Position numbers and translations under genes: made by a program. 64,000 nt of DNA, from assembly GCA_965207735.1 (NCBI GenBank), contig OZ242296.1:1216001-1280000 (forward strand), written 5' to 3'. Shown piece after piece: positions 19,894-58,395 of this stretch. Every line of letters begins with the position of its first letter. Position 1 is the stretch's first letter. The stretch is from Candidatus Versatilivorator sp. GTDB taxonomy: Bacteria > Acidobacteriota > Terriglobia > Versatilivoradales > Versatilivoraceae. Under the pieces are notes generated by a model. The model saw nothing but the letters and a program-made list of their open reading frames with translations. It ran no database searches and had not been told where the DNA came from.

Positions 19894-20664
19894 TCACCGA
19901 GGAAAATTTTTCTCGTGGATGAGGCGCAGTCCATCCAGCGTCAAATGGGAATCGATATGTTGAATATGGCGGGTGCCGGACCCGAAGAGTGTAGCCTGAC
20001 CTCCGGTGGAAACCACCGTTGTGTCAGGCCCCAACTCCCCGATCATGCGTTGAAGAATGCCGTCGACCAGGCCGATGTATCCGTGATAGAGGCCCGATTG
20101 GATGCTGGCCACGGTCGAGGTGCCGATCACGCTGACGGCCGGCTTGACCTCGACTCTGGGGAGCCTGGCCGTCCGGGCGAACAGCGCCTCGGCGGCTATC
20201 GCCGGTCCCGGACTGATGACCCCTCCGAGATACTCCCCCTTCCGGGAAATGGCGTCGAAGGTGGTGGCTGTCCCAAAGTCCACCACGATGCAGGGGCCCC
20301 CGTAACGATCAAATGCCGCGACCGCATTGACGATCCTGTCGGCGCCCACGTCCGAAGGTGGATCGTATAGGATGGGCATTCCGGTCTTGACCCCCGGCCC
20401 CACAAACAGGGGAGTAATCTTGAAATACTTCAAGGCCGTCTGTTGCAGCACGGTATTGAGGGGAGGAACCACCGATGCAATCACGATGTCCGAGATGCGG
20501 GTGAACTCGATGCCCGTCAGACTGAAGAGGTTCCTGGTCAAAACGCCGTATTCGTCCGCGGATTGACGCTCCTTGGTTTCCAGGCGCCAGTCGTTCCTCA
20601 GCCTGGAGCCCTCGTAGATTCCAAGCCAGGTATTGGTGTTGCCGACGTCGATGACCAGCAGCAT
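19894..20664 (-). CDS. coaX: Type III pantothenate kinase
   Basis: MLLVIDVGNTN, GADRIVN and VDFGTATTFD motifs. Confidence 0.96.
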   Translation of the reverse strand: MLLVIDVGNTNTWLGIYEGSRLRNDWRLETKERQSADEYGVLTRNLFSLTGIEFTRISDIVIASVVPPLNTVLQQTALKYFKITPLFVGPGVKTGMPILYDPPSDVGADRIVNAVAAFDRYGGPCIVVDFGTATTFDAISRKGEYLGGVISPGPAIAAEALFARTARLPRVEVKPAVSVIGTSTVASIQSGLYHGYIGLVDGILQRMIGELGPDTTVVSTGGQATLFGSGTRHIQHIDSHLTLDGLRLIHEKNFPR

Positions 20665-20678
20665 CGTCGCTTCGCCTC

Positions 20679-20726
20679 CCCATGGGCTCACGCCCACGGC
20701 TACCTGCTGCCGCCGCTCCGCGGCTC
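20679..20726. repeat. REP-like element, family C
   Basis: 45/48 identical to 36521-36568. Confidence 0.85.
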
Positions 20727-20779
20727 GATGGGTCGCCCGGGCGTTCGCCCGGGATTTTCAATTGCCAACAAGTGTCGCC

Positions 20780-21190
20780 CCTGCCCTGCCGGGCAGATCA
20801 TCCGAGCGTGAAACAGGGTTGTTTCAGGCAAGTCCCGCCCCCTCCCTGTCGTGCGGATCATTCGAGAGTCAAACAATCAGAAATCGATAATCCCTTTGTG
20901 ACCTTGGTATCCCGTCGCGGTTAACCTCAACGCCTTAGTGTCCCTTCGTCGTTCTTCGTGCCCCTTCGTGGATAAGTCTTTTGTCTTTCGTCTCTTGTCG
21001 TTTGTTTCAGACAAGCGAGGCCCCCGCCCCCCACGACGGGGCGGATCATTCGAAGGTGAAGAAACAGGGTTGTTTCAGACAAGCCGGGCCCCCGCCTTGG
21101 TGTGCGGATCATACATAGAGTGAAACAATCAGAAATCGACCATCCCTTCGCGACCTTGGTATCCCGTCGCGGATAACCTCAGCGCCTTAG
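20780..21190 (-). repeat. Family A repeat array, part downstream of the intron
   Basis: Reverse complement of the 1-550 units, including TGTTTCA...GAAACA cassettes. Confidence 0.93.
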
Positions 21191-23185
21191 GTAGAGTCGA
21201 GGGGAGGCGCGCCGGCCTTAGATCGAGGGAGTCGCTGTTGCCGGCGGCTTTCGCCACTCGCCGGTGCCTCAATCTCGTTCCTCGCTGCGTTTCCTCGCCC
21301 CCGCTCGTCAAACCGGACGTGCGGTTTTCCCGCATCCGGCTTTCAGTCAAGATCATGCCTTCGCCCTCGGAAGGCTCTGTGGCTTCGACCCCAGGCAAGT
21401 GAGTCCATAGGTTTTCCATAGTCTCTCGTCCGAGAAGCGCACACTCCCCCCGGTCCTCACCTTGTGCTTCCGACAGAGCCACTGACGCAGCCGCCCGCCC
21501 GCGTGGCGGTCGATCGCTCGGTAGGCCGGGCTCACCTGCCCCAGAACGAAGTAGTTCGCCCACCCGGTCATCGCCCGGTTCAGGTGTTCTACCATCTGTC
21601 CTCGAAGCAGCGTCCCGTTCCTCGGCGCCGTCCACTCGCTGATCTTGCGGCAGATGCTCTGGACGCTCGCCTGGCTGGGTCGTGTGCCGATGTAGGCTCC
21701 TTTCCCTTTGGGGCGATAGTTGCGTCCGATGCGATATCCCAGAAACCCCATCGGTTCCTCCGGACACCGCAAGCATCGGGTCTTCCGCTCGTTGACCGGT
21801 AGCTTCAGCTCCTCCATGATCCGCTTGACCGCCGTCAGCATCTCTGCCGCCGGTGCCCTGCCGAGTACACGGAAGTCATCCGCATAGTTGACGATCTCCG
21901 CACAGAAGCGCCGGGCATATCCCAGCACCTTCCAGCCCAAAACGAAGCGCCGCATGTAGAGATTGCTGAGCAACGGTGAGATCGGGGCTCCTTGCGGTGT
22001 CCCCTTCCGCTCCCGGCGCCCTCGGTTCCGGCGGCGTCTGCCACCCTTCCCGTCGTCCTCCTCCACCGGCATCTCCAGCCATGCCTTGATGAGCTTGAGC
22101 ATCCTCCCGTCACTCACGCGCCGGGCAATGCTTCGAATCAGCTCCGCATGCGGAATCTCGCCGAAGTAGTTGGACAGGTCGCCGTCAACCACCTCCTGGT
22201 AACCCCTTTGCAGGAGTTCATGCACGCGTTTGACCGCGTCGTTGGCACTCCGCCCCCGCCGATAGCCATATTGCTCCGGTTGCAGGTCCGCTTCGAAGAT
22301 CGGCTCCAACACCAGCAAAGCCGCCGTCTGCGCTACCCGGTCCCGTATGCAGGGTATGCCCAAAGGCCGGAACTTGCCGGGCTGTTTCTTCGGGATCAGC
22401 ACCTGCCGCACCGGCTTCGGTACGTAGGTTCCTTCCCTCAGATCCCGCGCCAGTTCCCCCAGCCAGCCCTCCACCCCATACGCCTCGATGTCCTTGAAGC
22501 CCTCCCCGTCCACCCCGGCCGACCCGCCGTTTCGGCGTACCTGTGCCCAGGCTTCCTTCAGAAAGTCCTCTCGCCACACCTTGTCCGACAGCGCATGAAA
22601 CCGCCGCTTGGGGTCCTCCTTCGCTTTCGCATGTAGCATGGTCTGGAATTTCCGAACCCCCTCTGACCCTGTTAGACTCTTGTCAGTGGCCACGCCTTGC
22701 CTCCTTTCCATGCTGCTCTCAACTCAGGGTCCCTTCCCTCCACCGGCGTTACCCGGCTTCTCCGGTACTACCGACCCATCCGCCACCCTGACGGCCCGGC
22801 CTGCCCCTCGCGGGGTCCCGGTTGATGTGTGCCGCATCTCCCCCAGGGCTTCCCGTGTTGCTGCCTTCTTCCCCTTCCATGCGTGCCAGCGTCACTACCC
22901 CGACGGAAGCGGATCGGTGCCCGCGTCGCTCTCTTCCCCATCCGCCAACGGCCTTCCCCTAAAGACAGGAGGGTCGGCTTCCGTATTGTCCGTTTCGAGG
23001 CCTGCTCGACGTTCACTCGCGTTCCGGCCCGCATGCTCGCTGAGCCGCCCTTGGCGGCCCTTGACGCCAGAGTGCTTCAGACCATTTCGTTACCTCCATG
23101 ATCCGCCCTGGCTGCTACCAACCGGAGCGACAGTTGTTGGGCGGGGTTCGCACCCGCCAGAAGAAGGCGCCTTTCCACGGCGCAC
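21191..23185 (-). mobile_element. Full-length group II intron
   Basis: 5' end GTGCG at 23185; 3' end ...CTCTAC at 21191; domain V AAGCCGGATGCGGGAAAACCGCACGTCCGGTTT near 21310-21342. Removing the intron restores the repeat sequence GGGGCA/CTAAGG. Confidence 0.95.
21353..22711 (-). CDS. ltrA: Group II intron reverse transcriptase/maturase, no endonuclease domain
   Basis: RPLGIPCIRDRVAQ, GTPQGAPISPLLSNLY and YADD motifs; domain X GWANYF; ORF uninterrupted. Confidence 0.96.
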   Translation of the reverse strand: MERRQGVATDKSLTGSEGVRKFQTMLHAKAKEDPKRRFHALSDKVWREDFLKEAWAQVRRNGGSAGVDGEGFKDIEAYGVEGWLGELARDLREGTYVPKPVRQVLIPKKQPGKFRPLGIPCIRDRVAQTAALLVLEPIFEADLQPEQYGYRRGRSANDAVKRVHELLQRGYQEVVDGDLSNYFGEIPHAELIRSIARRVSDGRMLKLIKAWLEMPVEEDDGKGGRRRRNRGRRERKGTPQGAPISPLLSNLYMRRFVLGWKVLGYARRFCAEIVNYADDFRVLGRAPAAEMLTAVKRIMEELKLPVNERKTRCLRCPEEPMGFLGYRIGRNYRPKGKGAYIGTRPSQASVQSICRKISEWTAPRNGTLLRGQMVEHLNRAMTGWANYFVLGQVSPAYRAIDRHAGGRLRQWLCRKHKVRTGGSVRFSDERLWKTYGLTCLGSKPQSLPRAKA

Positions 23186-23680
23186 TGCCCCTTCGTGGAT
23201 AAGTCTTTTGTCTTTAGTCCTTTGTCGGTTGTTTCAGGCAAGTGGGGCCCCTGCCCTGTCGGGTAGATCATCCGAGGGTGAAACAGGGTTGTTTCAGACA
23301 AGCCGGCCCCCGCCCTGGTGTGCGGATCACACATAGAGTGAAACAATCGGCAATCGACCATCCCTTCGCGAACTTGGTACCCCGTCGCGGTCAACCTCAA
23401 CGCCTTAGTGCCCCTTCGTCGTTCTTCGTGCCCCTTCGTGGAAATGTCTTTTTCTTTTGTCTTTTTAGGTTGTTTCAGACAAGCCGAGCCCCCGCCCTGC
23501 CGTGCGGATCATACATAGAGTGAAACAATCTGAAATCGACCACCCCTTCGCGAACTTGGTACCCCGTCTCGGTTAACCTCAGCGCCTTAGTGCCCCTTCG
23601 TGGTCCTTCGTGCCCCTTCGTGGATAAGTCTTTTTCTTTTGTCGTTTGTCGTTTGTTTCAGACAAGCCGGGCCCCCGCCG
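23186..23680 (-). repeat. Family A repeat array, part upstream of the intron
   Basis: Remainder of the interrupted unit plus two further units, ending at the birA stop. Confidence 0.93.
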
Positions 23681-23683
23681 GCG

Positions 23684-24676
23684 CTACCATTCGACCACGT
23701 CCCCGGCCACGACCTCTTCCACCGTACCATCCTCACATCTGACCCTGAGGGCCCCCTGCTCACTCAGCCCGGCGGTAGTCCCCCGAATGGAGCGGCCCAG
23801 GTTGGAGACCAGGACAGGGCGGCCTCTAACGGAGGAAGAGAAGGCCATCCAGCGCTCCAGCAGAGGCCGGAGCCCCTGTTCCAGGAAAACCAGGTAGAGG
23901 GGCTCCAGATGGTTCAACAAGGCAGCCACCAGTCTCGGCCTGGAGACCGGGCCGCCCGCCGCTTGCTCCAGGGTCGATGCCCGGCCGGCAATGGCGCCCG
24001 GAAGCGAGCTTCCATTCACGTTGATGCCGACTCCTACGATGACGAAATGGACCCTGCCGGGATCGGCGTTCATCTCCGTCAACACTCCGCAGCACTTCCC
24101 GCCCCGGGTGAGCACATCGTTGGGCCATTTGAGGTCGGTGGGGATTCCGGCGACTTCCCGAATAGCCTGGCTGGCCGCCAGTCCCACCACCAGGTTCAAG
24201 CCGGGCGCCTGCGCAGGATCCACCTCCGGCCGCAATATCTGCGAGAAGAGAATGTCCTTGGTCTTGCGAGACAACCAGGTTCTGCCCAAACGCCCTCGCC
24301 CGCCGGTCTGCTCCTCGGCCACCACCACTGTCCCTTCCGGCGCTCCGTCCCGGGCAAGGCGCCGGGCGGTGTCGTTGGTGGAGCCGACCCTCAGGTAGTG
24401 GTGATACCTCCGACCCAGCCGGTGGGTGGCGAGATGGGGTCGAACCCGGGAAGCCACCGGCAGATCGGCAGCCGCCGTGAGCCGAACCCGCCCATCCGAG
24501 CCCACCTCCAGAGGCAGACCTTGCACCTGGAGCCGGGCCAGAACTGCTGACAACTCGGCTGGGGACATGTCCAGGGTACGGGCGAGCTCCAGCCGGCCCC
24601 TCCCCTCGTCCCCTGCATCCGCCAGCAACTCGACAAGTCGATCGAGCCGCGCATCGCTGGATGGAAGTTCCCTCAT
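23684..24676 (-). CDS. birA: Biotin-[acetyl-CoA carboxylase] ligase with N-terminal HTH
   Basis: STND, QTGGRGRLGRTW and KWPND motifs; ATG overlaps the nadC stop. Confidence 0.93.
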   Translation of the reverse strand: MRELPSSDARLDRLVELLADAGDEGRGRLELARTLDMSPAELSAVLARLQVQGLPLEVGSDGRVRLTAAADLPVASRVRPHLATHRLGRRYHHYLRVGSTNDTARRLARDGAPEGTVVVAEEQTGGRGRLGRTWLSRKTKDILFSQILRPEVDPAQAPGLNLVVGLAASQAIREVAGIPTDLKWPNDVLTRGGKCCGVLTEMNADPGRVHFVIVGVGINVNGSSLPGAIAGRASTLEQAAGGPVSRPRLVAALLNHLEPLYLVFLEQGLRPLLERWMAFSSSVRGRPVLVSNLGRSIRGTTAGLSEQGALRVRCEDGTVEEVVAGDVVEW

Positions 24677-31042: not shown

Positions 31043-31112
31043 GGCGAAAATTTATCACAGCCACGGAAGGGCCGCCAAGGCTTCCCTGCCGAGGCGCTGA
31101 AATTCACTCACA

Positions 31113-32145
31113 GGGCGCCACGTTGGCCCCCCTCCGGCTCGACCGCGGGCTGCGCCGTTGTCATGAGCGTTAGCTCAGTCTGCCGCCGCCCCCCTCCGGA
31201 TCGACGGCGGGCTGTCACTTACGGGACACCGAGTCTGCCCCCCTCCGGATCGACGGCGGGCTGCGCCCTTGTCTCTCCGACTCCCCCTCAAGGGGGGAGT
31301 GATACTCGAGGCTTGCATGGGGCGCCTTGCCCGATTCCCGGGCGGGATGTAAACCATGTTCCCGGTCCAATGTGTCAACGCCGGTCCCGGTTAGTGCCCG
31401 GTATCACTCCCCCCTTGAGGGGGAGTCGCAGAAGTCGAGCCGTATGGCGAAGGCTGATGCGGTGGGGGGCAGACGCCAGCGCAGCTTTGGGGCGACGCGT
31501 GCCGTTGAAGCAGGTCCGTCTCGCTTCGTGGCTCCGCGAACGCTGCCGATCGGCTCTTACGGGACGCCGTGTCTGCCCCCCTCCGGATCGACGGCGGGCT
31601 GCGCCCTTGTCTCTCCGACTCCCCCTCAAGGGGGGAGTGATACTTGAGGCTTGCATGGGGCGTCTTGCCCATTTCCCGGGCGGGATGTAAACCATGTTCC
31701 CGGTCCAATGTGTCAACGCCGGTCCCGGTTAGTGCCCGGTATCACTCCCCCCTTGAGGGGGAGTCGCAGAAGTCGAGCCGTATGGCGAAGGCTGATGCGG
31801 TGGGGGGCAGACGCCAGCGCAGCTTTGGGGCGACGCGTGCCGTTGAAGCAGGTCCGTCTCGCTTCGTGGCTCCGCGAACGCTGCCGATCGGCTCTTACGG
31901 GACGCCGTGTCTGCCCCCCTCCGGCTCGACGGCGGGCTGCGCCCTTGTCTCTCCGACTCCCCCTCAAGGGGGGAGTGATACTTGAGGCTTGCATGGGGCG
32001 TCTTGCCCGTTTCCCGGGCGGGTGTAAACCATGTTCCCGGTCTAAAGTGTAAACGCCGTTCTCGGTTAGTGCCCGGTATCACTCCCCCCTTGAGGGGGAG
32101 TCGCAGAAGTCGAGCCGTATGGCGAAGGCTGATGCGGTGGGGGGC
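31113..32145. repeat. Tandem BIME-like array, family B (338-bp period)
   Basis: Units start at 31233, 31571 and 31909 (last one partial). Each has an inverted pair of ACTCCCCCTCAAGGGGGGAGT palindromes. Confidence 0.95.
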
Positions 32146-32348
32146 GGTCGCCGGGCTTTCAGGCGGCGTCGTGCGGCCACGCCAAGTCCCTTCAGCGCTG
32201 TCTTGATCCGCTGTCATTTCTTGTGCGACACGACTTCACAAATTTTCTGGCAAAAATCAGGGCAAGCTGCGATTCTTTCTCGAAGCCTTTAGCAGGCCGG
32301 CATCTCGCGGTCGCTACCGGCCGCTTGTCGTTCAGGAGAAAATCTCAG

Positions 32349-36476: not shown

Positions 36477-36568
36477 TGCTGTCGCCGCCTACGCGGCTCG
36501 GTGGGGTGACAAAACGCTTTCCCATGGGCTTACGCCCACGGCTAACTGCTGCCGCCGCTTCGCGGCTC
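36477..36568. repeat. REP-like element, family C, between convergent genes
   Basis: TGCTGYCGCCGCYTWCGCGGCTC twice, flanking CCCATGGGCTTACGCCCACGG; matches 20679-20726. Confidence 0.85.
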
Positions 36569-58039: not shown

Positions 58040-58234
58040 GGGAGACCTCCTTCTCCTGCCGCTCCGACCGGAGGGCCCACTCAGTTTATAGTCTGGTTTC
58101 GCCTCCCTCAATGTTTTTATTTTCAATGGATTTGCCGGGTAGCGGTCCCATTGCGGCAAATTGGAAGCGCCTTTCCGGATTGCACGGCGTTGCCAAAACG
58201 ACGATCCCGAGAAGTCACTGACCCTCACGTACAT

Positions 58235-58350
58235 GGCGCCGCGTTGGCCCCCCTCCGGCTCGACTGCGGGCTTCGCCCTTGTCTCGCCGACTCCCCCTCA
58301 AGGGGGGAGTGATACTTGAGGCCTGCACAAGGCGCCTTGCCCGATTCCTG
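58235..58350. repeat. Solo copy of family B
   Basis: GCCCCCCTCCGGCTCGAC...ACTCCCCCTCAAGGGGGGAGTGATACTTGAGGC, as at 31113-32145. Confidence 0.9.
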
Positions 58351-58395
58351 GGCATGATGTAAATGATGTTTGCGGTTTTTTTTGTGGACGATGCC

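Follow-up and report, generated by a model that had tools for sequence, protein, structure and literature searches.

A class F-like group II intron with most of its copies at one register of a dispersed intergenic repeat in Candidatus Versatilivorator sp.

The window analysed here is a stretch of 64,000 nucleotides from Candidatus Versatilivorator sp. (assembly GCA_965207735.1, contig OZ242296.1, positions 1,216,001 to 1,280,000), and its subject is a group II intron on the minus strand, between the genes birA and coaX. The intron appears to be class F-like and encodes a reverse transcriptase (RT) without an endonuclease domain; it is one of 13 copies in the genome, almost all of them at one register of a genus-specific intergenic repeat (repeat A), and it is likely to be spreading by retrohoming through RNA-DNA pairing to that repeat. 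From the sequence comparisons described below, a probability of roughly 0.84 is assigned to this reading.

The intron and its protein

The initial annotation had placed an intact group II intron at 21191-23185, splitting a repeat unit exactly, and the junction CACGAAGGGGCA/CTAAGGCGCTG (here and below, the slash marks the insertion point) bears this out. The element begins with GTGCG (23185) and ends with CTCTAC (21191) on the minus strand; Rfam matches cover group-II-D1D4-4 (23017-23159) and domains V and VI (21191-21344), and the hallmarks of group II introns are present: a GUGYG start, an AY end, a domain V with an AGC triad, a domain VI with a bulged A, and an open reading frame (ORF) for RT and maturase within domain IV. 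The RT/maturase scores 328.7 bits against TIGR04416 (cut-off 300), and none of the solved structures compared with it exceeded 164 bits; its nearest relatives are records titled Terriglobia, Candidatus Versatilivorator or Acidobacteria. The endonuclease domain is absent from its 452 residues, and the full-length AGC-triad domain V that had set the intron apart from class C is confirmed by the Rfam match and the predicted fold. The exon-binding sites (EBS) of the intron and the intron-binding sites (IBS) of its target are listed with the other features of the element.

21191..23185, minus strand: group II intron, class F-like (g3-affiliated), 1,995 nt, one of 13 near-identical genomic copies
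21353..22711, minus strand: intron-encoded RT/maturase, 452 aa, with YADD and without endonuclease domain (RVT_1 and GIIM)
23126..23132, minus strand: alpha element, whose partner alpha-prime (22924-22930) is inside a terminal stem-loop
22986..22991, minus strand: EBS2, GGACAA (intron nt 195-200), predicted to pair with TTATCC at exon -17..-12 with one mismatch
22961..22967, minus strand: EBS1, UGUCUUU (intron nt 219-225), pairing with exon -1..-7, G-U wobbles included, by covariation
22895..22895, minus strand: EBS3, G291, pairing with exon base +1
21310..21342, minus strand: domain V, full length, with AGC triad and 5-nt GAAAA loop (Rfam and fold)
21194..21306, minus strand: domain VI, long (~113 nt), bulged A at 21197, 7 nt from the 3′ end (predicted fold, z=-3.2)
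23186..23202, minus strand: 5′ exon target, common to other copies, with IBS2 TTATCC (23197-23202), a spacer and IBS1 AGGGGCA (23186-23192)
21190..21190, minus strand: IBS3, the +1 C (C in 12 of 13 copies, T in one)

The alpha/alpha-prime interaction is paired in 99% of cells across 16 sequences, with compensatory change in four of seven pairs.

Copies and insertion sites

The 13 copies in the 5.26-Mb genome are 99.6-100% identical, with 11 variable columns, and one is frameshifted. Eleven of them follow the TCCACGAAG core of repeat A, an excess over the 1.07% of the genome that the repeat covers (binomial p=2e-20); they are likewise overrepresented relative to all 1,507 loosely matching sites, 235 of which are in the repeat (p=8e-8). 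Of these 11, nine use the standard register and have an IBS1 that is compatible; in one the IBS1 is a variant (GTGATA), and another is displaced by two bases. Across their 60-nt flanks, the 11 copies have a median identity of about 66-68%, and none of the 55 pairs is identical on both sides; therefore, the copies represent independent insertions, one by one, into already diverged units. The initial annotation had supposed that the intron specialised on a dispersed repeat offering many neutral sites, and this is supported by the 11 copies here, by ten of ten copies in five related genomes, and by the scarcity of empty cores inside genes (14 of 335, according to a rough home-made gene caller). 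The two copies of this genome with other flanks are at C1:2900343 and C1:2853090, one before a stop codon and the other between a purine-rich, ribosome-binding-like sequence and an ATG. By the same gene caller, the copies show no preference for co-orientation with the upstream gene (8 of 13, versus 176 of 321 empty cores). The window copy was considered as the founder of the burst of copies and rejected, as it is derived at three columns in which the copy at C1:4519497 still has the outgroup states.

Each unit consists of an A-rich tract, TTATCCACGAAG-GGRCA, further 10-mers, CTAAGG and a tail, and the intron follows the first 10-mer, TTATCCACGAAG-GGRCA. Genome-wide, 9 of 194 IBS1-compatible first-register sites are occupied, versus none of 114 second-register sites (Fisher p=0.029). 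The five uninterrupted junctions to which attention had first been drawn (23408/9, 23590/1, 20938/9, 467/8 and 42029/30) do exist as sequence, but they are not equivalent empty targets, because they belong to the last 10-mer of the unit and are without the TTATCC of IBS2; the true empty sites are about 20 nt away. Their resemblance to the occupied junction arises because the occupied unit is a short variant that is missing two 10-mers, a form shared by nine empty units in the genome. Equivalent empty first-register sites in the window are at 23610/1, 20958/9, 23428/9 (variant ATTTCC), 23/24 and 447/8.

Pairing between guide and target

Covariation was assessed on 56 distinct intron-target pairs with parsable ends and EBS1 loop, tandem copies excluded, which comprise 23 EBS1 variants; three variants scoring 2.5 or less, probably nested introns or mis-set ends, were kept. 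Cognate pairing between EBS1 and exon averages 5.37 of 7 positions, versus 2.92 when shuffled (maximum 3.87 in 5,000 shuffles). A blind scan of columns recovers as best columns nt 219-224 for exon -1 to -6, G291 for +1 and nt 195/196 for -12; for EBS2 the covariation signal is limited to these two columns, and the full six-base pairing was set by inspection. EBS3 pairs with +1 in all 23 variants, by three Watson-Crick types. By pairing rules, four positions of the U-rich EBS1 should accept either A or G, in agreement with the occupied sites GGGGCA, GGGACA, GAGACA and AAGACA. At 12 of 13 sites, exon -15 is an A that the pairing model leaves unpaired, possibly a point of contact with the protein.

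Sister introns and replication strand

Two sister introns in the same genome have different guides and different targets. Intron B (94% identical, EBS1 UGUAAUU) occupies 3 of 19 sites in a hairpin repeat, and intron C (86% identical, EBS1 UGAGAAA) is represented by one full copy (C1:5004992) and 28 ORF-less copies of 869 nt, 22 of them identical; these 29 copies sit 13 nt inside the ends of IS1380 and its miniature transposable elements with inverted repeats (MITEs). The hairpin repeat, CCCAATGTA-T-TACATTGGG, is found in 19 places of G000:C1 (e.g. 2497484; G000 is the genome of the window), and intron B enters its 3′ arm. At C1:4261108 (minus), a hairpin-repeat site holds a mini-intron of 117 nt with intact ends and an internal deletion at a short CGGA match. 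One MITE end (C1:572756) reads GTGCG where its siblings read CCAGG, with length unchanged, and looks like the 5-nt scar of an aborted intron insertion.

The family totals 45 copies, or 55 kb. With the origin placed at dnaA (3.54 Mb) and two choices of terminus, 36-38 of the 45 are in the sense of the lagging-strand template (p<1e-4), versus 157-161 of 335 empty cores. Cumulative GC skew at 3.84-4.5 Mb is opposite to the expectation for a dnaA origin, possibly due to an inversion.

Related genomes

Of the 13 other genomes in the genus, 12 have the core of repeat A; a search of 47 further genomes found it in none. Introns of relatives were sought in 14 genomes by guide region and not by flank; a scan for the junction pattern gave 93 loci, 83 of which are chance matches without intron sequence. 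Ten copies of this guide type were found in five related genomes, all ten in the repeat (nine in the standard register and one shifted by two), and five of them are ORF-less. Homologues with other guides mostly have different flanks, so only a sub-lineage has repeat A as its target. The sub-lineage is not one clade in the protein tree, which suggests that retargeting occurred twice or that domain I was exchanged. Head-to-tail tandem intron copies were observed in G011 and in an alphaproteobacterial genome.

The repeat differs between species in the commonest sequence at the target. Counts of the variants GGGCA/GGACA/GGCCA/ACACA are 108/34/51/14 in G000 (n=207), 7/7/12/49 in G004 (n=75), 8/9/9/16 in G008 (n=42), 10/10/5/83 in G012 (n=108), 126/40/210/1 in G005 (n=377) and 32/51/120/26 in G002 (n=229). 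GGGGCA leads in G000, where EBS1 is UGUCUUU; in G004, G008 and G012, GACACA is the commonest variant and the occupied site, and EBS1 is UGUGUUU or UGUGUAU. EBS1 matches the commonest local variant in these four genomes; it does so imperfectly in G005 and not in G002, which have two copies each of this guide type. One of the G005 guides is altered exactly at the base opposing the mismatch described below, and the second G005 intron has retained UGUCUUU at an AAGACA site.

A retrohoming model and its alternatives

The mechanism that we infer is ordinary retrohoming. Read-through from the host would transcribe the intron, which would splice as a lariat bound by its RT; the ribonucleoprotein would reverse-splice into the strand bearing TTATCC-ACGA-AGGGRCA/C, mostly the lagging-strand template at the replication fork, and cDNA would be primed from nascent DNA as for RmInt1. 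Wobble in EBS1 would cover the repeat variants GGGGCA, GGGACA and GAGACA, while EBS2 or distal protein contacts would select the first 10-mer over later ones, and a few substitutions in the guide would suffice to re-aim sister lineages at IS1380 ends or the hairpin repeat. The repeat would be used one way, as a harmless landing site, with no mutual dependence.

Several observations weigh against this model. The specificity of the intron is not strict: one copy is 5 nt upstream of an ATG and another directly before a TGA, outside the repeat, although neither interrupts a reading frame. None of 68 sites with an EBS1-mismatched variant is occupied, versus 9 of 194, but this avoidance falls short of significance (p=0.12). 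In G005, where GGGCCA leads, one intron with EBS1 UGACUUU sits at GGGCCA despite an A-C mismatch, and in G002, GGGCCA also leads and neither of the two introns uses it. Because the genomes are related, the match between guides and local variants amounts to about three independent lineages, and co-inheritance could produce it. The strand bias is weak for the 13 copies alone (10-11 of 13, p=0.02-0.09; p=0.06-0.20 relative to empty repeats), and the GC skew follows an irregular course from 3.8 to 4.5 Mb. Finally, no contig from four read runs bridges an intron junction at birA-coaX; the joints listed are repeat-to-repeat and uninformative.

The strongest alternative, though an unlikely one, is that specificity is relaxed and selection purges genic insertions, leaving the repeat as the commonest intergenic match. 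Predicted genes contain 988 of the 1,272 loose sites outside the repeat, both ectopic copies spare coding sequence, and of the compatible sites in the repeat only about 5% are occupied, as expected for spread limited by selection (PMC3522654; this paper is cited from excerpts of its text, as are PMC3753933, PMC4615759, PMC2882425, PMC1525189 and PMC12584367 below). However, when only intergenic loose sites are counted, the repeat makes up 45% of them (235 of 519) and still holds 11 of the 13 copies (p=0.004), as well as all ten copies in relatives; a pattern that includes more of IBS2 has 114 matches in the genome, 111 of them in the repeat; and second-register sites, also intergenic, are unused.

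It is very improbable that a single insertion was multiplied passively with its repeat unit or by gene conversion. The repeat itself is dynamic, and the birA-coaX spacer contains an intron in three genomes, but the flanks are far more divergent than the introns, register and repeat variant differ among copies, and the replication-strand bias of the family is absent from empty repeats; the divergence of the flanks by itself largely refutes passive multiplication. The partnership suggested in the initial annotation, in which the RT builds or maintains the repeat array, did not survive and has scarcely any probability left. Co-occurrence and the matching of guides to variants are all that speak for it, whereas 7 of the 12 core-bearing relatives have no intron of this guide type, the core is tied to relics of a GxxExxY cassette, and other mobile elements use the repeat as well, among them an IS110-family element in all ten of its copies; since G009 contains 198 cores but lacks any intron of this guide type, the repeat is not dependent on the intron, and its expansion appears to go on where the RT is missing. 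Misassembly across the repeats, to which only the want of a bridging contig lends colour, is negligible in view of intron ends that coincide exactly with splice junctions and have guides to match, of independent assemblies that show this arrangement again (the orthologous spacer of G008 and G012 among them), and of a depth ratio that fits about 13 copies in a run that may be the source sample.

Within the retrohoming model, a more ambitious version can be put forward only tentatively, and we doubt that it will hold in full: that this class F lineage is a dedicated parasite of a non-coding repeat, with EBS1 tracking the drift of the repeat between species, GGGCCA as a possible escape form, and the paired registers revealing that homing in vivo is decided by EBS2, which class F introns do not need for splicing in vitro.

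Class assignment

A phylogeny of the RT had been proposed for assigning the class. A quick tree with long reference branches places the protein with two g3 references of class F, Ni.ha.I1 and a fragment from Acidithiobacillus (A. caldus), with support of 96 in the Shimodaira-Hasegawa-like approximate likelihood ratio test (SH-aLRT), and apart from references of g1, g2 and D. The identities of the g references were taken from Table S2 of PMC3552965 and that of the class D reference from Table S1. The protein is 44-47% identical to the g3 references and 33% identical to B.th.I3; it has YADD in place of the FADD motif of subgroup g2. An alpha-prime at the end of a stem-loop, a 5-nt domain V loop and a length of 450-700 nt without the ORF are described as traits of IIF shared with class E, and a long structured domain VI sets class F apart from class E (PMC3753933). 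All four traits are found here, the length without the ORF being 636 nt (1,995 - 1,359). Pairing of EBS1, EBS2 and EBS3 with IBS1-3 fits target recognition of subgroup IIB, and the short domain V and EBS1, missing EBS2 and insertion after a hairpin that characterise class C (IIC) are not observed. The intron may therefore be called class F-like and g3-affiliated, on the basis of a tree whose references were those of g1, g2, g3 and D.

Comparison with known systems

The class F g3 introns Ni.ha.I1 and D.a.I1 resemble the present one in having an RT-X protein without endonuclease, YADD, a size of about 2 kb, a 5-nt domain V loop, a terminal alpha-prime and a long domain VI (PMC3552965, PMC3753933). 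Unlike the copies in repeat A, the listed class F introns lie in insertion sequence (IS) genes or 'putative non-coding sequence' (PMC3552965). EBS2 has been proposed to matter for homing and not for splicing in class F (PMC3753933); the literature search found no homing study of this class, only that paper's study of splicing in vitro.

RmInt1 and RmInt2 of Sinorhizobium meliloti (class D) share with the present intron the missing endonuclease, a bias toward the lagging-strand template and a multicopy target, and RmInt2 homes to the inverted repeats of ISRm17 as intron C does to the ends of IS1380 (PMC4615759). Their targets, however, are IS with transposases of their own, in contrast to a non-coding, non-palindromic repeat with about 345 cores, and the intron class is different. 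TeI3/TeI4 of Thermosynechococcus elongatus are similar in that the lineage was split by EBS divergence and ORF-less copies likely moved in trans (28 copies, versus 45 here); these are CL/IIB1 introns located mainly within other introns and IS, and a dedicated dispersed repeat is not apparent in the excerpts consulted (PMC2882425). IS of the IS110 family and others that target repetitive extragenic palindromic (REP) sequences likewise use a dispersed repeat of the host as a safe site, but they are DNA transposons and REPs are palindromic, unlike the intron and repeat A; only two of nine Pseudomonas putida group II introns are listed beside REPs (PMC1525189). Class C introns at terminators and attC sites are also specialised on a recurring intergenic feature; they recognise a hairpin in the DNA, their EBS1 is short and EBS2 is missing (PMC12584367), whereas a 7-nt EBS1 and an EBS2 here face a target that folds no better than shuffled sequence. 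Multicopy IS targeting (RmInt1, RmInt2, E.c.I4) and the combination of EBS divergence with ORF-less passengers (T. elongatus) are already known, and the new parts are the type of target, the built-in control of register and the apparent tracking by the guide. Within the literature searched, which excluded subscription papers, no paper was found on EBS-guided homing of group II introns into a non-coding dispersed repeat, or on repeats flanking GxxExxY genes.

The safe havens known for group II introns in bacteria comprise IS elements, other introns, terminators and attC sites. A dispersed repeat, short and non-coding, that is recognised through ordinary EBS pairing would extend this list; three sister guides partition three repeat families in one genome, and genomic evidence on the mobility of class F is gained. 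The two registers, with compatible IBS1/IBS3 and different IBS2, are natural targets that make the proposed homing role of EBS2 directly testable.

Repeat A

Repeat A gives 453 BLAST hits in 276 clusters, with about 345 cores. The units are mostly solitary or in tandem (99 same-sense versus 6 inward neighbour pairs), and the whole unit is non-palindromic and folds no better than shuffled sequence (z=+0.76). A terminator was looked for ahead of the insertion site and none was found; with this fold, a hairpin or terminator target like those of class C is rejected. Classification as REP or as REP doublet forming hairpins (REPIN) is also rejected, as the unit is not a short palindrome and support from a REP-associated tyrosine (Y1) transposase (RAYT) is lacking: there is one weak PF01797 hit (C1:2227208-2227438), and about 640 bp separate it from the closest of the listed repeat clusters, a match of 35 bp.

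Of five fragments of GxxExxY nucleases, four are within 700 bp of a core, while 7.9% of the genome is within 800 bp of one, and at C1:2.249-2.250 Mb, inverted repeat arms flank one such fragment. We infer from these locations that one arm of a GxxExxY nuclease cassette survives in the core as a relic.

The IS110-family element (e.g. C1:2807900-2810300) adjoins repeat A always at CTTGYCTGAAACAACC, and one IS110 end carries a copy of the 60-bp module of the repeat; the module may derive from IS110 or be its guide-matched target. Other IS use repeat A less exclusively. One of 1.49 kb, whose transposase is IS1182/IS5-like, is present in 43 near-identical copies; of these, 14 adjoin the repeat, mostly in the A-rich tract. 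The repeat core TTATCCACG (window 23194-23202) is one base different from the DnaA box (TTATCCACA) and has 185 copies genome-wide, versus eight exact boxes.

The birA-coaX spacer

In the window, the intron is in the same sense as nadC, birA and coaX, as initially annotated, and it divides the repeat-A array of the spacer into two parts.

23684..24676, minus strand: birA-like biotin ligase, upstream host gene
23186..23690, minus strand: upstream part of the repeat-A array, with two complete units, empty first-register sites 23610/1 and 23428/9, and the start of the occupied unit
20775..21190, minus strand: downstream part of the repeat-A array, with the rest of the occupied unit, one unit with empty site 20958/9, and 60-bp modules
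20680..20725, plus strand: Acido-Lenti-1 motif, a separate repeat in the spacer (Rfam match)
19894..20664, minus strand: coaX, type III pantothenate kinase, downstream host gene

An intron is present in this spacer in 3 of 14 genomes, ORF-less in G008 and full-length in G012; the spacer has one empty repeat unit in the sister genome G002 and is 26-82 bp long in five related genomes. As the window copy is of a derived, recent haplotype and G008 and G012 fall in one clade separate from G000, at least two insertions must have occurred. A special hotspot is not thereby demonstrated: G008 and G012 may share one event, and the spacer of G000 offers four sites.

In Logan contigs of run X1, which may be the source sample, the flanks match without differences, and depth is 6.4-8.0 for flanking genes versus about 89-99 for intron contigs, consistent with 13 copies. 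In RNA run X15, the intron and repeat are covered and the flanking genes are not, so no expression signal can be attributed to the window copy.

Spacer length varies across the genus, from 26 bp to about 3 kb, and several different families of tandem-unit repeats have filled this interval. In the G005 spacer, inverted repeat arms enclose what appears, by eye, to be a GxxExxY pseudogene; a small insertion splits it, and a tandem-unit repeat other than repeat A flanks it. Elsewhere in the window are a second Acido-Lenti-1 motif (36522-36567) and a further tandem repeat family of 338 bp (31092-32152 and 58213-58376).

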